Source of the DNA: Candidatus Eremiobacteria bacterium
Lineage (GTDB): Bacteria > Vulcanimicrobiota > Vulcanimicrobiia > Vulcanimicrobiales > Vulcanimicrobiaceae
Assembly (NCBI GenBank): GCA_963758295.1
Contig: CAVWUU010000001.1
Span: 1-64,000 of the forward strand
DNA: 64,000 bases
Direction of reading: 5' to 3'
Part shown: positions 1 to 14,789 of the stretch, piece by piece
Layout of the letters: each line of letters begins with the position of its first letter
Numbering within the stretch: position 1 is the stretch's first letter
The notes under the pieces: model-generated
The model's input: the letters and a program-made list of their open reading frames with translations, nothing else
Told to the model about the DNA's origin: nothing
The model's database searches: none
Position numbers and translations under genes: made by a program

Positions 1-79
1 GCCGGTACATGGGAGGCGACGGCCTGGCTCAGCAGGCTCGTGATCGCGTCGATGGATTGATTGTAATCGATCGAACCAG

Positions 80-255
80 GTGGCGATCCGCTACGAGCTG
101 ACCAGGGCGGAAGCCGACATCCTGACGGCCGGCCTCCGCACCAACCCGATCCTCAACGCCAGCGGCCAGTATGTGCCCTACGGCGAGTACTCCGCCCAGG
201 CCCGGGGGGCAGCGGCGGCCAGCCCCAGTATGCCATCAACGTGAGCATTCCCCTC
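80..255 (+). pseudogene. TolC/CzcC-like outer membrane efflux protein fragment, 5' of the IS66 insertion
   Basis: Translates VAIRYELTRAEADILTAGLRTNPILNASGQYVPYG...QYAINVSIPL (one indel). The frame resumes at 6821 as PLDVTRKRGA.VGVAEHARRVL, resembling planctomycete TolC proteins. Confidence 0.65.
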
Positions 256-391
256 GTATGCGTATTCCAGACCACACCCATCTCGATCCGGCGACAAGGC
301 TATACTGCCTCGCGGAGCCGCGTGTGGCTGAAGTCAGTGATCGGCTACCGCCACGACCGCCAAGCGGTCGAGGCAGTCGAGGTTCTCGTGA

Positions 392-3300
392 TTAGGGTTC
401 CCCATTTGTTGGGGCCATTTCAGTCAGGGCACTCGGCAGCCGCCCGTCCCGTACTTCGCCCTTCTCGTTAGCTTGCCAGTACTGGCCGGAGCCCACGTCC
501 AGGGCAGTCAGCCACCCTCCGCCGTTGCAGTAGGTGTCGATGCAGACGAGGTACCCCAAGTCAAGGATTTCGCCGGTCTTCTGCGGCGTGTGGCCCACGA
601 CAGCGACCTTGCCTGTGAAGTGCGCCACTGGCTGCTCGCTGTCGAGCGACTGTCGCCGTAGGACGGCTCCCGGCTGGTATCTCAGAGGCAGCCCCGCCCG
701 ATAGTTGGCGTGAACGAAGAAGTGCGTGTCAGTCTCGTGGCGATCCTCGCACCTAGTGAGAAAGGTGCGGTGCAACTCTGGGAGGTCGCTCGGATGATGG
801 ACGCGGTAGGAGCGAAGTGTCTGGTCCCCCCCGGCGCTGTGCCAGCGGCCGAGGGCATCTTGCCCTCCCAGGGCAGCCAGGAATAGCTCCTCGTGATCGC
901 CCTTCAACGGCACCAGCGTGCAGCCACCCACCAGACCCAGCAACAGCTCAACCACACCCTTGCTGTCGGGGCCGAGGTCGATGTGGTTCCCGAGTGTGAC
1001 AACCGTGTCGCCCAGCTGGGGAGCGACGGCCCTGAGCAGGGCTCTCAATGCCTCAGAGCAACCATGGATGTCCCCGATAGCAATCGTTCTGACCCTTGTT
1101 TCGGCCCCGCTCGTTGAGACGCGCCCCTTGGCCCCCTGATCCGCTTTCCCCAGACGGCCACCACGATAGAAGCCCGACGGGTAGATTTCGAGGCCAACAG
1201 GATTCTTTTTCTTCCGCCCCCGGCGGCAGTAGGCATCAATATCCTCCTCACCCGAGAGAAGGAATTTGAGGAAGCTGATGCCGCGGTACTTGCACGTCTG
1301 GCGGACGCTCAGCAGCACGAGAAAGTCGGACAGTCCCTCCTTGCACATGAGACCGTCGGACACAGGGCCATCGCACTACGTTTTCCCCTTGATTTTTAGG
1401 GAATCCTCCAAGGAGCAAAAGACGATGACATGATAGATGGATTATTAATAATTTTATAAGATGAATTTTAGTTTTATTTTGATGTCGATCTGCACTTCTA
1501 AACCTTCGCTATCACGTGGTCCTGAATGCTTCTCTTCGGTCTGGGTTCACTTTTGTTGTGCGATGGCCCTGCCGTCGGACACCTCGCGAGACCAGGCGAA
1601 CGCCTTGATCGCGTGTTCGCCGTGTTGTTGTTCCAGGGTACTCCGTCGTGGTCCAGGAAGGTGAAGAGCCTGCCCTCGTTCTTGAGGAACCGCTTCTGGT
1701 AGCTCTCGGCCAGCTCGGAGCGGTAGACGCGGGCGGTCCAAGTCGCGGAAGAAGCGGGCGACCTCGGCCTTGTGCTTGTGCAGGTGACGCCTCTTCAGCC
1801 CGTATTTGTCGATCGTGTCCGACGATGGACCTGAGCAGCTTGCCGAACTCCCCGCCAGGGCCTTGAACTCCTCATCGTAGGGGCTGCCCATCAGGTCGTC
1901 GTTGATGTCCCGGATGAGGTGGAAGAGGCACGTCTGCTGCTCGCAGGGCAGCGACTCGTAGCCAGGGTAGAAGTCGGACACGAGTACCCCCTTGAAGCCG
2001 CGGAGAAGGTCATGGAGGAAGTCCGCCTCCCGGTTGGGCCGGTAGAAGTACACCACGTCCTCCATGTTCGTCAGCACCCAGACATACCCCTTGCCCTTTT
2101 GCAGGTTGACCTGGGTCTCGTCGACGTGGACCAGCCCGCCCGCCACGATCCTCGCCAGGATTCCTTCCATGTCTGGCCGGTAACGTCTGGCCATCAGGGT
2201 CTTGATCATCAGAAGCTCCATGATGCCGACACGTCAGGCCGAAGCAGTCCTCGAACATGGCCTCCAGTTGCTGCAGGCTGATGCGGTGGACGATGTGCTG
2301 GTACATAGCCCAGCTCTTCAGCCCGTGCAGGTGCTTGTCTCGCCTCTTGTACCGCTCGGGCAAGAACCGCTCTGCAGTCCTCGCACCGATGGCGGACGGC
2401 GGTGCAGCGGATCACCTGCCGGCGGATGCCCCCCGCGGTGAACTTGAGGTCGTAGGCGAGTTTGGACATGCATTCTCTTGCCGAGCTGGGTGATTCGGTT
2501 GCCCTTGCAGAAGGGGCAGGAATCGCTCGTGATCTCGACCTCTCTGTTCACCGGCGGCTTCGACCGCTTCCTTCGCTTCCGCGGCGGCTCAGGCAGGCCC
2601 GCCTGACCGCCTTGCTGGTGCGGACGAAGACCTTGTCGCGTTGGTAGTCGAAGTAGGAACAGCGGTTGACGTGGTCGAAGTCCTGGAGTGCGAACTTGGG
2701 CCGGCACCACTCGCGGCGGCTCGACGGAGCGACCTCGTCCGCCCAGGCGACGGCTGGGCTGAAGACGAGGCACCTCTGTTGCCTTCGCCGCGGCTTCGTG
2801 CCGCCTCACCGATGGCCTGGACGAACTCCGTGACTTTCCTCAAGGCGGCACAGTCCTCGGCGTTGTAGGTGAGCAGCTTGTCCTTCCAGGCGGGATCCCG
2901 GTCCTCCTCCCAGCGTGCCCGCCACACCAGGCTCTGAAGACCGGAGGCGTTCTCCTCCGTCCAGGTGCAGCCGAGGTAGCGGCCGACGTCCTTCAGCCCG
3001 TTGGAGAAGGTGGGGAAGTACACGCTGGCGTGGATCGCGGACAGGACGTTCACGGCGTTGGCGAGCAGGCGGTCCACGAGCTTCTTCCGCTTCACCACCT
3101 TCCTCATCCGCCGCAGCAACTTCTTCTCGTAGCTGCCGTAGTGGAACAGGGCGAAGTCCTCGCGGCCGTCCAGGAGGTCCAGGAAGGCGTCGAACGCCTG
3201 CACCTCTTGGTCCGGGCCATCCGCCCAGAAGGAGTGCATCTTCTGATTGTCGCCCTCGACGACGAGGACGCCCAGCAAGTAGGCGAAGCCGCCGTCCTCG

Positions 3301-4188
3301 CTGCCCTCGGCGTCGAGGAAGACCTGCACCGGCTTCCGCGGGATGTCGGGCGTGCCGTAGACGTGGACCTTCTTCTCGCGGATGGCCAGGGCCTGCAAGG
3401 CGGGGTAGCGGTTGTGGTCTGGTCGCTTGACCCGCTTGCCCCTCTTCCGCGGGCGGAAGGTGCAGGACAGCTGGGTGAGGGTGAAGATGCCCTTGCGGTT
3501 GATAGCGTCCGCAGCTCCTTCTCGCCCACGGTCTCCAGCAGGCTGATGTCGTCGGCCTGCTCCGCCTGCTCGCGGCACCGCTGCCGGAACTCGCAGACCT
3601 GGCAGTGCCCGTTCAGCATCAGTCTGCGGCGGCTCGCCGCCAGCCTGGAGCCGCTCGAGTTCTCCAGCACCTGCTCTGCCTGCCGGTAGAGCTTCGAGTC
3701 CAGGCGGACCTTCCCCAGCCGGCCCTCGGGGCCGCGGGCGACCAGCCCGGCGGTGGGCCGCACTCCCTGCACGCGGGCGAGGGCGAGCCCGAGCACGGCC
3801 AGCAGGACCTTCTGCTGATCGGCCGACCTTATCCCCGTGGTCGTGGAGTACGGGGACGATAGTGGTGGTCCCCCAGCTCGAGGCCCCGTCCGCCCGCTTC
3901 AGCGCGTCGAAACGGAGCGACAGGCCCTCGTCCTCGACGATGGCGTCCGCCAACAGCGGTGTCCCCTCTTCAGCGTCGCGGCGGTGATGGTGGTCCCCCC
4001 GGTGGGCTCCTTCGCCGGAGCGGGCGACGAGCTTGGCGAGGGCCTGCTCCCGCGACGCCGCGTCTGGCCGCCTTGGTCATGGCCTCGTAGTCCGACTCGG
4101 TACCGGTCTCGCCGGCGAGCTTCAGGTGGCCCTTGGTCTTACAGTTCAGATACGCTTCCAGGACTTCCCTCGTGATCTTCATGGCCAT
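392..4188 (-). pseudogene. Passenger fusion: TM0106/RecB-like nuclease + RNase H-like exonuclease + IS66 DDE transposase domain + metallophosphoesterase (frameshifted, MITE-interrupted)
   Basis: Consecutive ORF pieces give MAMKITREVLEAYLNCKTK, HCQVCEFRQRC, VFLDAEG..FHYGSYE..LKDVGRYLG..YNAEDC, CPFC/CEDC, HVDET..VSDFY..CLFHLIRD..EHAIK, then GDIHG..GNHIDLG..GDHE..VGHT..IDT. Confidence 0.8.
1363..1571. mobile_element. 209-bp MITE with ISAs1-like ends
   Basis: Perfect 14-bp terminal IR CAGGGCCATCGCAC (1363-1376 / 1558-1571). 10-bp direct repeat CCGTCGGACA at 1353-1362 and 1572-1581. Interior about 37% GC by hand count, with no transposase. Confidence 0.9.
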
Positions 4189-4397
4189 GATCCCGCCCCC
4201 GAGGTCGGCTCGGGACCGTCCCGCCCGGCGAGCCGTTCCGATGAGGTAGCATGCGCCGCCGACACGGCGCGCCATGGCAAGGACGACCTCATCTGGATCT
4301 GTCTGGTCAGCCTACCCGGCCGGGAGTGGGAAATCGCGGGTGCATCGCCAGCCGCACCGGGATCGATCGCCAGCCATCGGCATCCCGGTCCGTCGGT

Positions 4398-5945
4398 TCA
4401 CGCGGCTCTCTTGCGTCGTGCCGAGGGGTGCGACGCGAACCAGACGTCGGGCAGCAGCTCCTCGAGCTGATCCGCGGGATGGGACGGCAGGCGACGGAGG
4501 ACGTCCTGGAGGTAGGCGAAGGGATCGATGTCGTGGTGCTTGCAGGTGCCGGTCAACGAGTAGAGGACGGCCGCCGTCCGGCCGCCGCGGTCGCTCCCGA
4601 GGAAGGTCCAGTTGCGGCGGCCGATCGCCTGGGCACGGAGCATCCGCTCGGCGAGGTTGTTGTCGATGCTCAGGTCCCCGTGCTCGGGGTAGCGGCAGCA
4701 GCGCCGCCCAGTTGGACTGCGCGTAGGCGATCGCCTGGCCGATCGGGCTCTTGGGCAGCGCCCGGCGGCCCTGCTCGGTCAACCACTCCTCGAAGGCGTT
4801 CAGCAGCGGGACCGCATCCCGCTGGCGCAGGGCGCGCCGGTCCTCGGCCGACAGCTCCGCGGCGTCATGCTCGATCTTGTAGAGCTGCCGGATGCGGGCC
4901 AACGCCGCGTGCGCCGGCACCGGCGCCGAGGTCCGCGACTCGTAGAACTTCCTCCGCACGTGGGCCCAGCACGCGACCTCGATCACGCCCGAGCCGGCGC
5001 AGATCCGGTCGTAGCCGGAGAACGCGTCGGCCTGGAGGTAGCCGCGAAATCCCTTGAGGAACGCCTCCGGCCCGTCCCGCGTCCGCCGCGGCGTGTAGTC
5101 GTAGACCACGTAGGGATGGCGGACGTCCCCGACGTAGACCCAGAACCGCCCGGTGCGGGTGTGCGGCAGCGTCGGGTCCCACACCGGCACCGTGGTGTCG
5201 TCGGTATGGATGACCAGCGAGAGCAGCACCCGCTTGACCATCTCGTTGAACAAGCGGGGTGAGCAGCTCGGCGCAGGAGGCCATCCAGCCGCAGAGCGTG
5301 GCCCGCGACAGCTCCACGCCGTGGCGGGCGAAGATGTCCTCGAGCCGGTACAGCGGCAGGTGGTCGCCGTACTTGCTGGTGATCGTCTGGGCCAGCAGCC
5401 CGGGGCCGGGCAGCCCCTTGTCGATCGGCTGGGGCGGCTTGGCCGCGATCGCGACGTGCTCCTGGCAGGCCCGACAGGCGTAGCGGAAACCGGACGTGCT
5501 GAAGGACCCGCATCGAGGCGGGGACGTACTCGAGCTGCTCGCTGACCTCCTCGCCGATCTTCATCCGCACGCAGCCGCAGTCCGGGCAGGCCAACTCCTC
5601 GGCGGTCAGCTCGTACTCGATCCGCTCGCGGGGCAGGTGCTCGGGGAGCCGCTGCCGCCCACGCCGGCGCCAGCGGCGGCGGCTCGGGCGCCGCGTCCTG
5701 TGGCTCGGGAGGCGCGCCGGGATCGCCCTCGGCGAGTCCTCGGGCTCCTCGTCGGCGAAGAGCCGGAGCTGGTCGGGATCGACGCTCTCCCGCCGGGGGC
5801 CATACTGGCGGCGGAGCAACTGCTCGACCTGGTGCTCCAGCTGCTCGATCCGCCGTTGCGACTCCCGGATCGTGTCCGCCTGCTGGCGGATGATCTCGTG
5901 GCAGAGGGCCAGGTCGTCGGGAAGGGGCTCGTCGGAGTCGCTCAT
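4398..5945 (-). CDS. tnpC: IS66 transposase TnpC (frameshifted in this sequence)
   Basis: Leucine zipper with RRQYGPRRE, LPEHLPRERI, CPDCG, HTDDT, YLQADAFSGY, ACWAHVRRKF and GRRNWTFLGS...LEELLP. Pieces lie in several frames. Confidence 0.92.
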
Positions 5946-5954
5946 GCCAAGATT

Positions 5955-6356
5955 CTACAGTCGAGCCGGACTTCGAAAAGGGGCCTCTCCGGGGATTTCG
6001 ACGGATTCTCGCGAGTAGCGCCGCTGCCGTCGGACGCTGCCGAGATCGACCCCGTCGAGGATCATCATCAGGTCCGCCGCCTTGATCTCGACATGCCCGG
6101 TCGCCTGAGCCGCCGCGGCCGGGAAGCGGACGTTTCCTCTCTCCAGCCGCTTGTACCACATGGCGTACCCATCCCTGTCCCAGTACAGGATCTTTATCCG
6201 ATCGCCACGACGGCTGCGGAAAACGAACAGGTGGCCCGAGAACGGATCGAGCGCCAGGGACGATTCGATGAGATGCGCGAGCGAGTCGAATCCCTTTCGC
6301 ATGTCGGTCGCGTCGGAGCAGAGGAAGACCTTCACGGTCGGGGGCCAGCTCAGCAT
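5955..6356 (-). CDS. tnpB: IS66 accessory protein TnpB (Orf2)
   Basis: TDMRKGFDSL, LFVFRSRRGDRIKILYWDRDG, KRLERG motifs. Confidence 0.95.
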   Translation of the reverse strand: MLSWPPTVKVFLCSDATDMRKGFDSLAHLIESSLALDPFSGHLFVFRSRRGDRIKILYWDRDGYAMWYKRLERGNVRFPAAAAQATGHVEIKAADLMMILDGVDLGSVRRQRRYSRESVEIPGEAPFRSPARL

Positions 6357-6742
6357 GATCGGCCCTCCAGCACGGCCAGGACCTGACCGAGGGTGCGCGG
6401 GTCGAAACCCGAAGGGACCCGGACGGTCGGGCCGGTCGGCAGGACGATCTCGATCGGAGGCGAGGGACGGGGCGAGGCCGCCTCCAGGTCCACCAGCCGC
6501 ACCGGCAGGAAGGCCGGGGCCGCTTCGGTGGGCTCGCCATCCCGGTCAGCCTGGGTCGTGGCCGACGCCTCGCGGTCGCGGCGGGCCAGCGCCTGCCGCC
6601 ACCAGCGGAAGGCGCCGTCCTTCAGCCCCTCGCGGAGGCAGAAGGCGCGGACGGTGAGCCCGCTGCGCTGCTGCTGTCGGATCGTCCGCCGCCAGAACTT
6701 CTCCCGGATGGGATCACGCTGTCTGCCGCCGCGTCTGGCCAT
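6350..6742 (-). CDS. tnpA: IS66 accessory protein TnpA (HTH)
   Basis: FWRRTI..QQRSGLTVRAFC..WWR, FLPV, IEIVLP..VRV motifs; overlaps the tnpB start. Confidence 0.9.
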   Translation of the reverse strand: MARRGGRQRDPIREKFWRRTIRQQQRSGLTVRAFCLREGLKDGAFRWWRQALARRDREASATTQADRDGEPTEAAPAFLPVRLVDLEAASPRPSPPIEIVLPTGPTVRVPSGFDPRTLGQVLAVLEGRSC

Positions 6743-6820
6743 GCTGGGGTCTCCTCGATACCGAAGGATCGGCTCGAGGCGATCGTACCATGGCCATCAA
6801 GATGGGGTTCGTAAAGCGAC

Positions 6821-6886
6821 TTCCCCTCGACGTCACGCGGAAGCGCGGCGCGGGTGGGCGTGGCCGAGCACGCCAGGCGGGTCCTC
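6821..6886 (+). pseudogene. Continuation of TolC-like fragment after the IS66 element
   Basis: PLDVTRKRGA.VGVAEHARRVL follows directly on VSIPL at 255, then breaks off. Confidence 0.6.
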
Positions 6887-6989
6887 CACGCCAGGGGCCG
6901 GGGCACGGGCAACGTCTCGGCGATCTTCCGCGGGACGCTCATCCTCAACGGCAGCGCAACCCGCTGCGGCTCAATTCGGCCTGAGCCGG
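6883..6989 (+). repeat. Diverged copy of 10062-10169 (3' end of a paralog of the LEPR-xLL protein)
   Basis: Both encode LHARGRGTGNVSAIFRGTLIL..G..NPLRLNSA-stop, with mostly synonymous differences. Confidence 0.85.
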
Positions 6990-7064
6990 TCGGAGAGCCC
7001 GCCCCCGCTGCCCATCGGCGCGGAGGACGATGGAGATCAGGAAAGGGTTTGCTCCGGACCCGGC

Positions 7065-8926
7065 TCAGTGGCCGGGCTCGGACGGCCCCGCGCGGACCCG
7101 GCCGGGGCGACGGCGGGGATCGTCGTACCCCGGGAGCTTGCCCCCGAACGACTTCTGGATCGCCCCCATGGTGCTGCTGGCGCCGCCTTTTCGGGGTCGG
7201 ACACGCTCCGGATCCTCGGGACGCCGCGACGGACCATCAGGGGCCGCGCGCCCCGTCAGCCGGGCCGGTTCCGCCCTCGGCAGGGCGATCGTGTCGGGGG
7301 CGAGGGCCTTCTTCGGGAGGCTCGCCTGGAGGCTCGTGCGCTGCGCCGGCGTCATCTTGGCGAGCAGCGCCTCGAGTCGGCTCTCCGCGTTCTCTTCCAC
7401 CTCCGCCGCCGCGGGGGCGGCGACGCCGACGGCCCGGCGACCGGGCTTCCTCGGCCAGGACCCGCGGGTTGACCTCGGTCCAGCGGAGATGCAACTCGCC
7501 GTTGATCCGCCCGCGGTCCTCGGGCCTCGGCAGGGCGAAGGACAGGACCACGCCCTGCTCCTCGCCGTACGAGACGGTCGGCCCCGACACCCGGGCGTTC
7601 GCGGTCGTCTTGAATTGCGAGTCGATGACGGCGACGGCCGAGGCGCCGCCCCGCCAGGGCAGGCGGAGCGTGTACGTGTTATTGAACAGGTCGAGGTAGT
7701 GCTGCGACTGGCTGCAGAACCCCTCGTTGCCCCAGTTCCGCACGAAGATCGCCCAGGTCTCGTCGGCCGGGTCGTCCTTGACGCGGATCGCCATCACGTA
7801 GACCGGGTGCAGTTCGGTCGGGCAGTCGTGCTCGCAGTCGAGCCCCAGCAGCCCGGTGACGATCGCGTAGCTGCCGTCGACCAGGGCCCGGGCGTCCTTG
7901 TCGGACTTGTCCACGGCCTTGTGGAACGCGTTCCACCAGGGCGTGTCGAAGTGGTCGATGGTCTCGCCGAATCGAACTCGAGGCCGAGCCCCAGCCCGCT
8001 GGCTTGGACGTGGTCATGCCGGCCCGGTTCGGGGGGAGGAGCCGGAAGTTGTAGTCGTCGTCGGCGATCGGGTCGGAGTGCGATTCCCAGGTGATCGGGC
8101 CCTCGTAGGTGGCGGGCATCCAGTTGACGTGCCCGTGGGTCTCGCCGATCTCGCCCCGCTTCAGGGCGTCGGCCGTGCAGAGGATGTTGACGAAGGTCCC
8201 CGCGGTATCGATCGAGGGGGCCTGGGTCGTGCAGGGGGCCTGGACCACCTTGCCGCAGAGCTGGTGGACGTCCGGCGGGGCGCCGGCGTGGTCGACCTGA
8301 TAGGCCCAGCGGGGGTTGAGCGGGATCGCGTTGTCGTCGACGGCGTCCCAGACGAGGTCCATCGGGGCCGCAGGCGGCGGCGAGCCGGCCGTCGGCCCGG
8401 ACTGCGACCGTCACGATGACGAAGGCGTTGCCGAGGCCCTTGCACTGGTCGCCGGTGCCGTCGTCGCCGGAGCGGCCCCAGTAGCCGTTGTCGCTGTAGC
8501 CGTCGTCCTCGTACCCGAGCCGGAGGAAGAGCTGCGCGGGGTCGACCCCCTTGGGGATGACGGCCGGGCGGCCGGCGACCCCCTGGATCCGCACCAGCCC
8601 CGACTCGGCGCCGGGGATCCAGACCAGGCCGTGATAGAGCCGGTCGGCGTTGGGGCCCCGCGGGTCGACGTAGCGCTTCCACGTCTTGCCGTGCCCCCCC
8701 GTCTGGGCGCAGCCCCCGGCGGTGACCGTCACCGTGTCCCCCGGCCGGAACCGGATGCTGCCGTACTCGGTCAGACGCTGCTTGACGTTCGGCTCGTCGA
8801 TCCGCCAGCGGACCGTCGTCGCGTTGACGACCTGGCACGTGACGTGCTCGTCGGCCCGGGCGGTCGTGAGACCGCCGAGCGAGGCGGCGGCCAGGAGGGT
8901 CGGCTGTCGTTCCCGAGGTTCGCCAT
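7065..8926 (-). CDS. Hypothetical secreted protein (several frameshifts)
   Basis: Signal-like start (LLAAASLGGLTTARA) followed by successive GC3-biased ORF pieces 7794-8996, 7679-8362, 7237-7914 and 7065-7400. Confidence 0.6.
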
Positions 8927-9422
8927 GGCATGGTCCTCGATCCCTGTCGAGGCGGGGGCGCGGGCGGTACGCAAGACGCCCCGGACCGGCATGCACCCGC
9001 GAGTCCGTCCCCGCCGCAGGGCCACTCCTCTGAGAGCGGTGGCTGGTCGGCGGCTATGCTCGAAATCGGAGGAATCGCGGGTCGAATCCCCGACGGAAAT
9101 GGGTCGGCCGCGCTTCCTCCGGGCGAGGCCGAGCCGGATCCCCGGCTCTCTACGGCCTCCGATGTGCCGGCAAAACGCTCGATGACCCGGGAGCGTATTC
9201 CGCCGCCTCGCATTCAGGGTCGTCAAGAAAAAACAAATTGCCATTGCGCTTTTTCTTAGGGATTGTGGCCGGATCGATGCCGGATCGCGACCCGACCCTT
9301 CAAGGGGATGTCGGCCGCCGGGTCCCGGAGTGGGGGCTCCTGGACCCGGGTCCCGCGATCATCGATCCGATCCGTTGTTGATACCGAGGCGACGGGAACG
9401 GACCGGAGGAGGAGCGATCACC

Positions 9423-10164
9423 ATGAAACGGAAGAAGCACAGGGGCTCCCGCGGCCCCGGTCGGCCGGACCCTCGAGAGTCCTGGAGCCGCGGAATCTGC
9501 CGTCGGCGTCCACGCCCTCATCGCGGGCCGCGGCCGGCGCTGGGGCGCAGGCCCGCGTCGGGCCCAGGCGGCGGGACGTTCGCGCTGGGCCAGACGCAAC
9601 TCAACCTCGCGGCACAGCGTCGACCGGCTCGCTCGACCGTCGCGCAGGTCAGCGGCTCGCCGACGCCCACGAGCGGCTGCGCGACGAACTTCACCGCGGT
9701 CTTCTACGGGCCGTACATCATCGGCCCGCCGCGGTTCTCCGGCGATTCCTCGCAGACCTACACGAATCGGGCGGGACCTCCAGCTCGTTCCTGCACGGCA
9801 ACCTCCAGCTCGGCTTCCAGACGCCGTCGTCGGCCGTCGCAGGGCCCCGAGCGGCACGCGCCACGCTGTATCCCAAGAATTACCTGATGACCGGCAACTA
9901 CCTGGACCTCCAGCTCCAGGGCGACCCCACCGACTCCCGCGACGGCGCGCCACGTCGTTCACCTGGATCGTCAGCTCGGCCAGCTCGGGGATGTACGCCA
10001 ACGCCTCGGGCTCGGGGACGGTGCAACTGGTCTACCACCCGGGCAGCCGCGGCGGCGGCTACCTCCACGCCCGCGGCCGGGGCACCGGCAACGTCTCGGC
10101 GATCTTCCGCGGGACCCTCATCCTCGACGGCACCATCAACCCCCTCCGCCTCAATTCGGCCTGA
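9423..10164 (+). CDS. Planctomycete-type extracellular protein with LEPR-xLL-like N-terminal motif (frameshifted)
   Basis: GGAGGAG RBS, MKRKKH...LEPRNLPS, beta-rich body; ends NPLRLNSA-stop. Confidence 0.65.
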
Positions 10165-10253
10165 GCCGGCGCCGGGGAGCGGGGGCGCGGGCTCGTCCGC
10201 GCCCGACCCCCGCCGACGCCCGCGGACCGCGGCGGTGAAGGCTTTGTAGGTTC

Positions 10254-11069
10254 ATGAACCGGCTGCACGCCTACCTGAGAAGAATAGAATACGGCGGCCC
10301 GCTCTCTCCATCGCGTCAGACGCTGCACAATCTGCATCGCGCGCACCTGCTTGCGATTCCGTTTGAAAATCTCGAAGTGCAATTCAACCGCGTACCGTCG
10401 CTCGACGTCGATCGCATCTTCGAAAAGATCGTCGTCGCGAAGCATGGCGGCTGGTGCTTCGAAATGAACGCGCTCTTCGCGTGGGCGCTGCGCGAGATCG
10501 GGTTCGAGGTGGATTATCTAGCCGCTGCGGTAGGACGCGAAAAGCGCGGATCGAGCGCGCACATGAACCATATGGCGCTGGTCGTGCATCTCGATCAGCC
10601 GTTTCTGGCGGACGTCGGTTTCGGGAACGGCCCGCTGATCCCGATGCCGTTGAAGGTCGGCTCATCGAGCGACATGCGGTTCGAGTTTCACCTAACGCGA
10701 GACGGGGACTGGTGGCGCTTCCACAATCACCGGTATGACGGCACCACGTATGATTTTCTCGAGCTTCCGGTAACCCTCGAATCGTTCGCCGAAACGAATC
10801 AGTGGCTCGCGACGTCGCCCGAATCGTACTTCGTGCAAAACCTCGTTTGTGCACGCCTTACCGAAGACGGGATGATGCGCTTGACCAACGCTCTGCTGGA
10901 GCGCTTTACGACCTCGGCCATCAAGGAAGAGGCCGCCGTGAGCGCGCCCGCGCTGCAGCAAATTCTCGACGAATGCTTCGCTCTGCACGTCGAGCGCATC
11001 GCTGAATTGTGGACGCGGGTCTCCACGCAACACAAGGCTATGTTACGCAAACGCATTCGCGGCTTTTAA
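10254..11069 (+). CDS. Arylamine N-acetyltransferase
   Basis: IPFENL, GGWCFEMN (catalytic Cys), HMAL, ADVGFG. Confidence 0.92.
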   Translation: MNRLHAYLRRIEYGGPLSPSRQTLHNLHRAHLLAIPFENLEVQFNRVPSLDVDRIFEKIVVAKHGGWCFEMNALFAWALREIGFEVDYLAAAVGREKRGSSAHMNHMALVVHLDQPFLADVGFGNGPLIPMPLKVGSSSDMRFEFHLTRDGDWWRFHNHRYDGTTYDFLELPVTLESFAETNQWLATSPESYFVQNLVCARLTEDGMMRLTNALLERFTTSAIKEEAAVSAPALQQILDECFALHVERIAELWTRVSTQHKAMLRKRIRGF

Positions 11070-11581
11070 GCTCTCTCGTGCCGGGACATCAACGCGGCGG
11101 CGCCGATAAGCAACGGCACGAAGATGTCGCCGAACCAAAGGACGACGATTCCCGCGTTTGCGGGAGCGTAATTATGCAGCTTCAGGATTTCGTCCAGATG
11201 CTGCGCCGCCGCGGCAAGTGAAAAAATCACGAACGGCACCGTGATGGCAGCACGATACCCGTTGCCGTAACGGCGGCTAAAAAGTGCCGCGACGCCGAGC
11301 CCGATTTCGAACCATCCCAGCTCGTATTCGAACGGACTGGGCTGCCAACCGATTTGCGGAGCCGCTATCGACTGGAAATAGGCATGAAAAATGCCGGCCC
11401 AAATCATAGTCAACCCGACGTAGTAAAATGTCAGTTCCGTCCAAACGATCGTTGTGGAGGGAATCGGACGGCGCCCAAGGCCCGCGCGCCGGATCTTCGC
11501 GATAACCGCGGCAAGCGCCATGATGAAGAACAGCACCGGAAGGTTGCCGAGAACCGTTCGAATGACGTCCGCTATCAACAT
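11066..11581 (-). CDS. Multi-pass membrane protein (DUF6790-like)
   Basis: Hydrophobic helices, IGWQPSPFEYELG and NYAPANAG motifs. Confidence 0.7.
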   Translation of the reverse strand: MLIADVIRTVLGNLPVLFFIMALAAVIAKIRRAGLGRRPIPSTTIVWTELTFYYVGLTMIWAGIFHAYFQSIAAPQIGWQPSPFEYELGWFEIGLGVAALFSRRYGNGYRAAITVPFVIFSLAAAAQHLDEILKLHNYAPANAGIVVLWFGDIFVPLLIGAAALMSRHERA

Positions 11582-13212
11582 CGCTCTTCCCCTCGCAAGC
11601 GGTTCGTGATAATGGCGAGTGCTCCCAGATGTAGGAGCGTGTCTCCCGGCCCGTAAGTCGAGTGCCAGAACCAATCGTCGGATAGATAGTCGGAGTGGAG
11701 AACGGGATGGACCAGCGTAGCATGTTTATGCCCACGTTCGTTGCGACAGATCGGCCGGCCGCGACGATCGTCTTGCCACTCGGGATCGCTCTGTCGTTGG
11801 AGGCGCAGGGTGCGCGCCGATTCGATCGACTCACCCGGCCTCAAGAACGAGCGAAACGAACGGATCTCGTTGCAGATGGCGTCCTGGAAATACCAATAAT
11901 TCGCCCAGAAGATGCCGCGGCCGTTGGGATCTTCCAATACCGACGGATCGCAGCAAAAGAGGGTTCCGAAGACGTCGTTGCGCCATTGCTCGAAGGAAGC
12001 CGACGGCGACACGCCGGCAACGTCGAAAAAGTAACGCGTCTTTTCGAGCGACGAACCGAGCGTGAGGAACGCGCGAATTCGACCGAACTCTTCAGTCGTG
12101 AGGCCGCCTTGCAGCGCGAGTTGCGAAACACGAACGAGCGCATCCATTGCGATCGTCGCTCCTAGGCTGTGGGCGAGGATGACCACTCGATCGTAGGCCT
12201 GGCCGCCGTTCAGTCGCGGCGAGATTGCCCTCAAAATTGCATCGACGGTAACACGAAGAATGCCGTCACGCAGTTCGAAAAATCGGGAATCGTTTTCGTC
12301 GCGCGTCGTGTAGATTTGCACGTCGCCGAAGATATTGATGATGAAATCAACAAAAATCGCGCGTCCCAAAGAGTAAGCGATGAAGATCAGCAGCAAGAAC
12401 ACGATGCCGCGCCAGCCCAGCGCGCCGTTGGGGAACCGCACGACCGCCATGGAGTAGACAAAAAGCACGCCCATCACGGAAAGCACCGTTATGGCGACCG
12501 CGCGGTGCCAGATCGCTTTGGAGTTGTGACGAAGCGCAGCGCGCTGTTGGAAGAGTTTAATTAGCGCGGAGATCGCCTGGGTCACCAGAAAGGCGCCGAT
12601 CAGGCCCACGAAAAGCCAGACGCCGATTTTGATCGGGATGCCGCCGGGCGCATTCGCGTTGGCATTCAGCGTCGTTATCACGTCGCCGGCAGCGGAGTGT
12701 CGCAAAATCCCGGTAACGTCGAGAATTCGAAGGAACGATTGCCAAACCGCCGTCAGCGAAACGAAAAACAATGCAAACGAAATCACCAGCGCGCCGCCGA
12801 TGAAGCCGTAGTCAAAGAATTGCTTTCCCGCCGTGGCGTCGTAGCGTGCGGTCGTATTCAGCGGGACGAACACCACCCGAAAAATCCACGCGAGGATGCC
12901 CCACCACTTGGTCCGGCCTTTGTCGATGGCGCTCCAATATGCTTCCATCACGTCGTAATAGGTGCCGCGCGGATGGCTTGGGTCGTCGCCGTCCTGGTGT
13001 ACGCGGCTGATCGTCGGGACCGGATCGTCCGCGCCATGTTCCAAAACGTTGCCCGGATTAACCGCGTCGATTACCCACTTGCCGTTGCCACCCGCTTCAT
13101 TCAAGCGTTTAGCGAGTTCGCTCGAGCATTGATCCTGAAACTCGTAGCGCGGATGCGGCGATACTCCGTGAACGACGACGAGGGCTACCCGTTCGCCCTT
13201 TAAATCTTCCAT
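11575..13212 (-). CDS. Membrane-anchored alpha/beta-hydrolase-fold protein
   Basis: VVVHGV, central TM helices, LAHSLG nucleophile elbow, C-terminal HSDY. Confidence 0.65.
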   Translation of the reverse strand: MEDLKGERVALVVVHGVSPHPRYEFQDQCSSELAKRLNEAGGNGKWVIDAVNPGNVLEHGADDPVPTISRVHQDGDDPSHPRGTYYDVMEAYWSAIDKGRTKWWGILAWIFRVVFVPLNTTARYDATAGKQFFDYGFIGGALVISFALFFVSLTAVWQSFLRILDVTGILRHSAAGDVITTLNANANAPGGIPIKIGVWLFVGLIGAFLVTQAISALIKLFQQRAALRHNSKAIWHRAVAITVLSVMGVLFVYSMAVVRFPNGALGWRGIVFLLLIFIAYSLGRAIFVDFIINIFGDVQIYTTRDENDSRFFELRDGILRVTVDAILRAISPRLNGGQAYDRVVILAHSLGATIAMDALVRVSQLALQGGLTTEEFGRIRAFLTLGSSLEKTRYFFDVAGVSPSASFEQWRNDVFGTLFCCDPSVLEDPNGRGIFWANYWYFQDAICNEIRSFRSFLRPGESIESARTLRLQRQSDPEWQDDRRGRPICRNERGHKHATLVHPVLHSDYLSDDWFWHSTYGPGDTLLHLGALAIITNRLRGEERC

Positions 13213-14789
13213 GATCCCGCGTTCCACGTCGGCAAGAACGCGTTCGGCTTAAATCCGCTCAGGCGGTCGCTGGACGCGTAGATGTAATTGGCGTTGAACA
13301 AATACAGCACTGGGACTTCGCTTGCCACGATTCGCGCAATTTCGCTGTAGAGCTGCCGGCGCCGAGGTTGCGACATCGAGACGATAGCCTCTTTTTCAAG
13401 CGCGTCGACGCGCTTGTTGCACCAGCGCATGTAATTTGAACTTCCGTCGCAGGAAAGCACGAACGAATCGTCCGGATCGGCGCCCATCGTAAAGGGCACG
13501 TACGCAAGATCGAACGTGCCGGTTGCCAGCGTGCCGGTTTTTGGCAAAAAGAGTTGCGCGTTGCTTACGCTTTTTACCGTTACGTCGATCCCGCGCTGAT
13601 GCAGCTGGGCTTGTACCGCCGTTGCTACGCGAACGCCGGTCGTCGATTCGGGAAACTGCACGTAGACCAAGCGAAACGTCTGCCCACCGTGGCGTCGCAT
13701 TCCATCAGTTCCGCGCGGCCAGCCGGCGCGATCGAGAAGCGCGTCGGCGCCTGCGGGGTCGAACTGCGGCTCGCGGACTCGCCCGTCGTACGCCCACGAG
13801 AACTGCGGCTGAAGCACGTTCGTAACGGGATACTTTCCGAGCGTAATCTTCGCGCTTATGCCGGCACGGTCGACCGACATGGCAAGCGCGCGGCGAACCA
13901 GCACATCATCGAGCGGCGCATGCTGAGTGTTGAAGACCAGTCCCGCAACGACGGCTGTCGGCACGGTAGTAAACCGCAGGTGCGCATTCTTGCCGACGAT
14001 CTGCAACTGCGCGGGCGCAATCAAGTTCCAGTCCAGCCCGCCGGATTGTAGCATCAATAGATTCGTGGACGGGTCCGGTGCAATCCGAACGTCAAGTTTT
14101 TCGACAGCCGGCTTCCCGCGCCAATACCGGGCATTGGCAACATACTGCAGTGCCTCGCCCCGATGCCACGAAACAAATGTGTACGGTCCGTCACCAACGG
14201 ACGGCGCCGCGTTAAACGAAGCTAGCGCGAGAGGCGCTTGCTTCTCGAGGACGTGAGCGGGCAAAACGAACTGCGGAGACGTCCCATACGAAAAGTACGT
14301 CATAACCGCCGGCGCCCAGGCCTTCTTTAAGTGAAAGACGACCGTATGCGCATCCGGTGCGGACGCCCGGTCGATCAGCTCGTAGCCTTCGTGCGAGCGA
14401 ACGGGATTGCGCGGATCGAGAATTGCGTGCAGTGTGAAGAGCACGTCGGCGCTGGTGACCGGGCGGCCGTCGCTCCACTTCACACCGGGTCGAAGGTGGT
14501 AGGTAAGCCTCCGGCCGCCGGCCGAGACACCGCCGTTAGCCACGCTCGGTAGCTCGCGTAGAAGCGCCGGCACCGGATGGCCGCCTGGATCTAGATCGAT
14601 GAACGGCTCGAAGGCCAGCCGTGCGACTTGCTGCTCGACCGAAGCAGCATCAGGGTGCAGGAAGAGCGGATTGAGCGAAGCGGGGTCCGCCGCCAAGTCG
14701 AAGCGGACCGTGGACGCTTCCGGGGCACTTGGGCCCGAACACCCCGCCGCTAAGGCGAGCGCCAGCATGAAAGCAGACCGAAGTCTCAT
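13200..14789 (-). CDS. Peptide ABC transporter substrate-binding lipoprotein (family 5)
   Basis: Lipobox LAAGC, LRPGVKWSDG.PVTSADV.FT, GDGPY. Confidence 0.92.
   Translation of the reverse strand: MRLRSAFMLALALAAGCSGPSAPEASTVRFDLAADPASLNPLFLHPDAASVEQQVARLAFEPFIDLDPGGHPVPALLRELPSVANGGVSAGGRRLTYHLRPGVKWSDGRPVTSADVLFTLHAILDPRNPVRSHEGYELIDRASAPDAHTVVFHLKKAWAPAVMTYFSYGTSPQFVLPAHVLEKQAPLALASFNAAPSVGDGPYTFVSWHRGEALQYVANARYWRGKPAVEKLDVRIAPDPSTNLLMLQSGGLDWNLIAPAQLQIVGKNAHLRFTTVPTAVVAGLVFNTQHAPLDDVLVRRALAMSVDRAGISAKITLGKYPVTNVLQPQFSWAYDGRVREPQFDPAGADALLDRAGWPRGTDGMRRHGGQTFRLVYVQFPESTTGVRVATAVQAQLHQRGIDVTVKSVSNAQLFLPKTGTLATGTFDLAYVPFTMGADPDDSFVLSCDGSSNYMRWCNKRVDALEKEAIVSMSQPRRRQLYSEIARIVASEVPVLYLFNANYIYASSDRLSGFKPNAFLPTWNAGSWKI

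Follow-up and report, generated by a model that had tools for sequence, protein, structure and literature searches.

Close to the start of contig C1 of a Candidatus Eremiobacteria assembly, three IS66 transposase genes are followed on the same strand by a giant gene that itself encodes an IS66-type transposase domain, which raises the question of where this insertion sequence (IS) ends and whether both transposases moved as one unit. We analysed the first 64 kb of C1 (64,000 nucleotides, hereafter the window) within its source assembly (GCA_963758295.1, denoted G000: 3.03 Mb in 6 contigs, including C1 and C4, 60% GC, 82% completeness); related loci, proteins and genomes carry L, P and G numbers. 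An initial annotation, made from the window sequence alone, had proposed a transporter element of 6.6 kb at this place. We consider it highly probable that the element comprises positions 256–6820 (6,565 bp) and forms a single IS66-family transporter IS (tIS), read on the minus strand in the order left inverted repeat (IRL)-tnpA-tnpB-tnpC-cargo-right inverted repeat (IRR).

The limits of the element are marked by an 8-bp target duplication, TTCCCCTC, whose left copy lies at 248–255 and whose right copy lies at 6821–6828, as the initial annotation had stated; a third copy is present in the window at 11587, and the reverse complement has 0 copies there. Since the probability that two random 8-mers from the first 12 kb are equal is 1.35e-4 for a given pair, coincidence is not credible. 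Directly inside the left copy, position 256 opens with GTATGCGT (on the minus strand the equivalent is ...ACGCATAC), and the IRR (256–295) consists of the tip GTATGCGTATTCCAGACCACACCC followed by CCCATCTCGAT. Metagenome contigs were scanned with an alignment of four TnpA proteins, yielding 80 loci, and the IRL proved to be common to 14 related loci, each with different flanking DNA. Similarity of these 14 loci to the window breaks off at 6809–6818, with L112 extending to 6818, and their IRL tip consensus is GTATGCGTCATACGAACCCCATCTTGATGGCC. The 8-nt tip at 256 is identical to this consensus tip (8/8 with the IRL tip of L111), and the IRR further equals the right end of L118 (GTACGCGTATTACGGACTACGCCC, end position 5219) at 19 of 24 nt, counted by eye on the alignment. 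Because of these two matches, position 256 is the true IRR of the tnpABC lineage rather than the terminus of a different element, in agreement with the IS66-like end originally noticed there. The IRL (6781–6820), aligned with the 14 related IRLs, reads GT---CGCTTTACGAACCCCATCTTGATGGCC on the minus strand and is 3 nt shorter at its tip than the IRL of L112 (GT---CGCTTTACGAACC in the window, GTATGCGCTTTACGAACC in L112); L112 is 94% identical across the next 1,062 nt, and related soil contigs reaching 6818 read on with CATAC. The tip of IS66 elements in ISfinder is GTAA; here it is GTATGCG, and in L017, an analogous unit described below, it is GTAAGCG.

Removal of the element rejoins the two pieces of an OEP/TolC-like remnant on the plus strand: a 5' piece at 50–255, whose reading frame shifts from 2 to 1 near 200 and whose last residues are ...INVSIPL, and a 3' piece at 6829–6875, which begins DVTRKR..., contains one frameshift near 6850 and then reads ARVGVAEHARRVLHA. 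This rejoining, already seen in the initial annotation, restores a motif that is uninterrupted in all seven homologues analysed: QYD[VI]N[VI][ST].P[LIVF]D[VL]..KR, compared with ...QYAINVSIPL (frame 1, to 255) and DVTRKR (from 6829) in the window, with the duplicated 8 bp spanning the I-P-L codons. These homologues are OEP-type open reading frames (ORFs) of planctomycetes, from a Singulisphaera genome and an Isosphaeraceae metagenome-assembled genome (MAG), which align with window positions 50–193 at 54–65% identity over 34–48 aa (tblastn); the two tested in Pfam, L191 and L196, match PF02321 (OEP) with two OEP repeats. The description of the target as TolC-like is borne by these homologues and not by the remnant itself: the latter totals ~250 nt with two frameshifts, and a six-frame PF02321 search of G000 gave no match at C1:50–255 or from 6829. 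The left flank is only 255 nt long because the contig starts at position 1. An empty site could not be identified by synteny, as window 6829–10300 is without counterpart in G041–G045, and the protein homologues were used in its place. From 6864 the remnant is replaced by a copy of 10039–10202, the 3' end of another ORF: 6864–7021 aligns with 10039–10202 (blastn 88.8% for 6876–6989 and 10054–10169), the ORF 3' end reading ...GTGNVSAIFRGTLILDGTINPLRLNSA followed by a stop, and the second copy of this repeat is located at the right-hand border of the high-GC region discussed below. The long ORFs of 6393–10249 exhibited no Pfam match.

Every gene between the two copies of the duplication lies on the minus strand, and tnpA, tnpB and tnpC follow one another in the order of the IS66 family, tnpC being distributed over three frames. 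Intact tnpA (6350–6742, 130 aa) matches NF047593 (IS66 TnpA, E = 2.9e-15), overlaps the start of tnpB and is 91–92% identical to L111 and L112; tnpB (5955–6356, 133 aa), likewise intact, matches positions 2–100 of the 101 in profile PF05717 (E = 3.1e-35). In the case of tnpC (4398–5945), the gene is broken by three +1 insertions near 5487–5490, 5252–5255 and 4694–4698, at each of which related soil contigs are one base shorter. Its Pfam domains (LZ_Tnp_IS66, zf-IS66, DDE_Tnp_IS66 and IS66_C; PF13007, PF13005, PF03050 and PF13817) are spread over three reading frames, and the intact TnpC of L124 crosses window frames -2/-3/-1/-2 in tblastn.

The region behind tnpC holds no IRR-like sequence in 4150–4420: the probe score of 10 was equalled in 53 of 300 shuffles, which upholds the claim that no IS66-like inverted repeat stands just past the tnpC stop at 4398. 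The probe method does detect canonical ends, since 13 of the 27 more distant IS66 loci having sequence there exhibit an IRR 76–246 nt past the tnpC stop; one such canonical IS66 element, L169, measures 2,762 bp. The closest full-length tnpABC relatives, L124 (82.4% DNA identity over 4398–6813) and L118 (80.6% over 4394–6813), lose their similarity to the window at 4394–4398, that is, at the tnpC stop, and neither of these nearest relatives ends near the equivalent of 4300–4390, where the initial annotation had considered that other copies might stop. Rather, both continue into another cargo of 2.3–2.8 kb that they have in common (L124:2942–5271; L118:2468–5219), and in L118 the IRR is reached 2,752 nt beyond the tnpC stop; the 14 ORFs of this cargo that we tested gave 0 Pfam matches, the first ORF in L118 encoding 228 aa. 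In the window, a spacer of 205 nt separates the tnpC stop from the cargo gene, and a soil-metagenome contig that is 95% identical over 4300–4451 bridges both the stop and the spacer (runs X3 and X5, which are equal in size and may be one data set). One backbone is thus found with different cargoes, and one cargo in different backbones; in the IS66 clade of the window element, this comparison shows the site immediately past the tnpC stop to be a cargo slot. As a separate observation, L130:705–1335 is an internally deleted IS66 in which the tnpA region runs straight into the final ~220 nt of tnpC, with an unrelated ORF behind it.

The cargo itself is one broken giant gene (392–4188, minus strand) with a TM0106 RecB/Cas4-like nuclease, a DnaQ-like RNase_H_2 domain predicted to be a 3'-5' exonuclease, an IS66 zinc finger and DDE domain, a C-terminal tail and a Metallophos domain; RNase_H_2 and DDE_Tnp_IS66 were matched directly in window ORFs. 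The reading frame shifts near 4058, 2752, 2370 and 2234 and about four further times within 1571–1900, and an insert occupies 1364–1571. The initial annotation had distinguished a fusion gene and, downstream of it, a separate metallophosphoesterase ORF. This separation did not stand up to comparison: the first ~80 aa of the ORF at 392–1363 correspond to the conserved C-terminal tail of the fusion family (~70 loci), and P0016 (1,299 aa) aligns with the window in pieces covering residues 1–1286 at 50–80% identity (tblastn), as would be seen for a single gene split by a miniature inverted-repeat transposable element (MITE)-like insert. The closest relative of the cargo at the DNA level, L018 from an Isosphaeraceae MAG, is 89.6% identical over 1596–4186. 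The insert comprises 208 bp (GC 0.41) with 13–14-bp terminal inverted repeats and is flanked by an 11-bp direct repeat, CCGTCGGACAC, at 1353–1363 and 1572–1582; window 1342–1596 takes the place of 36 bp in L018. Removal of 1364–1582 (219 nt: the insert and one repeat) yields the open frame ...AFAWSREVSDG / LMCKEGLSDF..., which follows the family consensus residue by residue. The DNA fold z is -3.6. The insert looks like a MITE, and the 11 bp are not an IS66-type duplication; no second copy of the 208 bp was found in G000 or G041–G045. At the other end of the gene, the first codons of the cargo (4175–4189, ATGGCCATGAAGAT on the minus strand) resemble the subterminal IRL sequence at 6790–6804 at 14 of 15 nt and in an IRR-like orientation, with only 1 of 300 shuffles scoring as high; this likeness may be due to chance, since family members located far from any IS66 have conserved the same N-terminus.

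Relatives of the cargo are ~950–1,300 aa long and were analysed by domain searches with Pfam, NCBIfam and PADLOC. Their nuclease module matches TIGR03491 (E about 1e-64) and comprises a Cas4-like part with four invariant cysteines together with RNase_H_2, whilst their transposase module covers positions 3–380 of the 387 in NF033517, with zinc finger, DDE and C-terminal part and no N-terminal leucine zipper. The module order TIGR03491 (4-Cys PD-(D/E)XK + RNase_H_2) followed by NF033517 is present in P0001, P0016 and P0109, and some family members add a Metallophos domain that is nearest to PrpA/ApaH/Pnkp-type phosphoesterases. We counted at least 1,572 family proteins of at least 796 aa among the 8,000 candidates scored, and at least 523 relative-encoding stretches in GTDB species genomes (tblastn E ≤ 1e-3), the hosts being Planctomycetota, Acidobacteriota, Proteobacteria, Cyanobacteria, Verrucomicrobiota and a few archaeal MAGs. 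Members are annotated as 'predicted RecB family nuclease' or as 'IS66 family transposase'; a table for Ca. Solibacter usitatus lists 'transposase IS66: pfam03050 + COG2251' with 4 copies (PMC3469429), and PF13482 of COG2251 has been placed among predicted 3'-5' exonucleases, with a link to DUF83 noted (Majorek et al. 2014, PMC3985635).

The presence of two IS66-type DDE domains in one unit, as proposed at the outset, is confirmed by these assignments, and the two domains fall into separate lineages. TnpC from L124 and the fusion protein P0001 are 22% identical across 411 aa, their zinc fingers and their D, D and E positions being in register, and a quick maximum-likelihood tree splits 21 fusion DDE segments from 27 TnpC segments with 100% support. 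Given this low identity the two are not a recent duplication, and the DDE domain of the cargo represents an old lineage of its own. In the same quick tree the backbones that carry a fusion gene (the window, L017, L008/L180 and L014) are found in different TnpC subclades; going by this tree, the pairing of fusion gene and tnpABC appears to have arisen more than once, or the cargo to have been exchanged.

The closest parallel to the window element is L017, a unit of 6,486 bp with inverted repeats GTAAGCGTCCGGTCG(C/G)CCCC at 7727 and 14212 (19/20 match, start GTAAGCG) and an 8-bp duplication, AAAAACGC, which contains an intact fusion gene (open frame of 1,074 aa) and a convergent tnpABC. It is one of the 4 among 72 genome loci of the fusion family with IS66 tnpA/B/C nearby (L008, L014, L016 and L017), to which L180 from the metagenome set adds a fifth: both genes are enclosed by 40-nt inverted repeats in L008, and tnpC adjoins a convergent fusion gene in L180 and L014. 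In these analogues the cargo lies between tnpC and IRR and is convergent to tnpC, whereas the cargo of the window is codirectional with tnpC. The remaining 68 of the 72 loci have no match to IS66 tnpA/B/C in the DNA examined. A screen for an exact 8-bp duplication plus inverted repeats across 152 loci (L006–L077, L111–L190) and the window returned 27 rows of which only L017 was convincing, the rows from L025 stemming from a long inverted duplication; this screen is insensitive, since the window element itself failed it. A looser search for inverted repeats, covering 63 of the 72 genome loci (L013, L015, L030, L034, L042, L045, L053, L075 and L077 were left out), recovered only L008, L017, the long inverted duplications of L047/L073 and the palindromic arms of L050. 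IS66-type ends around stand-alone fusion genes were hence not found with these insensitive screens, and the upstream regions of 10 copies are shared over at most about 100–130 nt.

Direct repeats of 230–590 nt (84–99.6% identical) flank stand-alone copies of the fusion gene in L022 (7348–7611 / 10931–11194), L023 (2399–2663 / 6517–6781), L068 (6635–6889 / 10931–11185), L069 (7308–7893 / 12213–12798) and L034 (904–1132 / 7311–7541), the repeat of L022 consisting of the 3' end of a gene together with the terminator hairpin of that gene; IS66-type insertions do not leave such repeats behind. The gene is single-copy in G041–G045, and 7–8 diverged copies are found in G049 and 4 in G050, some of them head to tail. 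Such head-to-tail arrangements of diverged copies (~70–76% DNA identity), which are odd for an insertion sequence, occur in L020 (1738–4240 / 5507–8009), L045, L067 (5259–13501), G049 (two tandem pairs) and G050 (three copies in a row on one contig). In L025, from a Blastocatellia MAG, inverted 1,588-bp copies that are 99% identical (4365–5952 and 10834–12420) bracket the fusion gene (8001–10712), an arrangement that looks like a composite transposon.

Taken together, these data are best accommodated if the 6,565-bp unit inserted whole, its target being a planctomycete-type OEP (TolC-like) gene of which 8 bp were duplicated in the process. As both ends belong to the tnpABC lineage, the DDE transposase TnpC would act with TnpA and TnpB on IRL and IRR and thereby move the whole unit, with the fusion gene presumably riding along as a passenger rather than serving as the enzyme of movement. 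That tnpABC and the fusion gene moved as one, which had been inferred in the initial annotation, gains support from the shared lineage of the ends, from the cargo that relatives carry past tnpC and from the analogues L017 and L008. Our best guess for the cargo protein is that of a passenger acting either in DNA-end processing or as a self-propagating nuclease-transposase. We also entertain, with considerable reserve, the idea that the giant gene is no random cargo but a mobile or selfish cassette which, in one orientation or the other, has repeatedly reached the tnpC-IRR spacer in IS66 lineages that are unrelated. It could recognise IS66 ends by its own zinc finger/DDE module and enter with the aid of its Cas4-like and DnaQ-like nucleases, or it could help its carrier as a second-strand nuclease; its tandem arrays and direct-repeat settings elsewhere have no explanation in known IS66 behaviour.

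The alternative that survives best invokes two events: a short canonical IS66 element would have made the 8-bp duplication, and the fusion gene would have entered the tnpC-IRR spacer later, by its own transposase activity or by recombination, so that the 6.6-kb unit never moved. The evident exchangeability of the cargo is compatible with this, given that the backbone of the window carries another cargo in L124/L118, whilst L017, L008 and L180 have its cargo in other backbones and in the opposite orientation, as is the apparently complete DDE triad of the cargo family. However, neither inverted repeats nor a duplication were seen at the cargo borders on reading the sequences, the L017 composite does transpose whole, and the soil contig spanning the tnpC stop and spacer indicates that the junction is not private to the window locus; we thus regard a separate arrival of the fusion gene as improbable, and insertion of the complete unit as the better account.

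Several observations nonetheless weigh against a single mobile unit. The search for further copies with the same ends, which the initial annotation had suggested, came back empty: neither G000 nor 40 relatives yielded another copy of the complete 6.6-kb element in a different setting, blastn of 1–7500 against G000 returning only the self match and the 6876–6989 / 10054–10169 repeat, and the 40 relatives giving only four short weak matches (72–89% identity over 34–119 nt), one of them in G036. L111 and L112, the contigs nearest in tnpA, measure no more than 1.2–1.3 kb. At the ends, the IRL tip is non-canonical and lacks 3 nt, so that the flush position of the right duplication depends on taking GT as the tip; the two ends of the window element align poorly with each other, the combined screen for inverted repeats and duplication missed the element, and an 8-bp duplication is absent at L118. 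The element further lies 255 nt from the contig end within a stretch of 65–75% GC in a genome of 60%, its frameshifts amount to ~2 per kb, far above the rest of the window, and these features together mean that the region could be poorly assembled. Public runs hold at most 0.12 of the sampled words and none contains the stretch; the four soil runs that we assembled provided relatives only, on short contigs, and say nothing on the assembly of the window.

In its strongest form this concern becomes an explanation of its own, in which reads from a rarer organism of high GC were collapsed or joined into a chimera, so that either the order tnpABC-fusion-IRR or the assignment to this host is false. 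The position at the contig end, the jump in GC at about 10.2 kb (65–75% in the first 10.2 kb of C1, 58–60% beyond) and the dense frameshifts, many of them beside short homopolymers, are in favour of such an artefact. A misjoin would not, however, yield a duplication that is exact over 8 bp and across which a conserved run of codons is restored, the same architecture is present in other assemblies, and further high-GC stretches in G000, including the last ~82 kb of C4, suggest a real island split over two contigs, which leaves an artefact a shade less probable even than a two-step origin. These other stretches (66–75%) are C4:1317000–1399315, which forms the ~82-kb end of C4 and is the largest, C1:444–458 kb, C1:550–554 kb and C4:46–52 kb; judged by composition, the start of C1 and the end of C4 may be one foreign island of at least 92 kb that was broken in assembly. 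The last 20 kb of C4 showed no synteny with G041–G045, and no tRNA was found in window 1–14000. The contrast in frameshift density, with open frames of 716–963 aa elsewhere in the window, can be explained by real decay as well as by poor coverage of the region. Provided that the assembly is correct, this is a dead copy: the deletion in the IRL tip, the three +1 insertions in tnpC, the approximately eight frameshifts of the cargo and the MITE-like insert point to a decayed and probably immobile element.

Very unlikely indeed is the last alternative, in which the 8-bp repeat is due to chance and position 256 is the end of a separate element holding only the fusion gene and abutting a tnpABC element that has lost its right end: the fusion family does occur mostly without tnpABC (68/72 genome loci, in the DNA examined), but a chance match has a probability of about 1e-4 per position pair, L118 has a right end like the sequence at 256 and yet no fusion gene, and stand-alone fusion genes showed no IS66-type inverted repeats in our insensitive screens.

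The preferred reading, a single tIS that inserted whole, offers a case of an IS66 transporter IS worked out down to its two ends, and the call of an over-long IS66 from sequence alone proved right. The copy in the window is itself a decayed relic of little value alone. Of wider relevance is the cargo family, which joins an IS66 DDE transposase to a Cas4-like nuclease and a predicted 3'-5' exonuclease, with a phosphoesterase added in some members, and which is abundant in soil bacteria across phyla; should its members act on DNA ends with or against IS66, they would constitute a new type of transposon-associated nuclease. In the papers reached by full-text searches, as far as their accessible text goes, the family appears only as an annotation line, and neither a nuclease-IS66 transposase cargo nor a cargo slot behind tnpC was found.

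Comparison with known systems places the element as follows. Its likeness to canonical IS66 elements (L169; ISPpa5a and ISPpa7, listed with 2,731 and 2,829 bp and 8-bp direct repeats in PMC3281130) lies in the order tnpA-tnpB-tnpC, the tnpA/tnpB overlap, inverted repeats starting with GTA and the 8-bp duplication. The difference lies in size: canonical elements measure ~2.7–2.8 kb with the IRR 76–246 nt past tnpC, whereas the window element extends over 6,565 bp with its IRR 4.1 kb past tnpC, well outside the usual IS66 length of about 2.5–3 kb with an IRR soon after tnpC, as had been recognised from the start. It is by such length, with no IRR near tnpC, that a tIS differs from a plain IS, and IS66-family tIS with passenger DNA within the IS ends have already been described (TnCentral preprint). 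With these the window element shares IS-like ends, transposition genes and a passenger within the inverted repeats, here one 3.8-kb gene between the tnpC stop and the IRR; it differs in that the passenger is a nuclease fused to an IS66-type transposase, a comparison made by the ISfinder/TnCentral definition of tIS and not by catalogued passengers. Within the TM0106 RecB-like (TIGR03491 / COG2251)-IS66 fusion family, the gene is usually stand-alone, whilst that of the window is broken cargo inside an IS66 element. A functional parallel is offered by Tn7, where TnsA, a restriction-enzyme-like nuclease, works with the DDE transposase TnsB: the cargo likewise combines a PD-(D/E)XK-type nuclease with a DDE transposase and could, by analogy, in principle cut both strands at the ends, although there is no sequence relation to TnsA and TnsB and the window element has no target-selection genes. 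The element hence belongs to an already described kind, the IS66-family tIS, and it is the cargo that is unusual.

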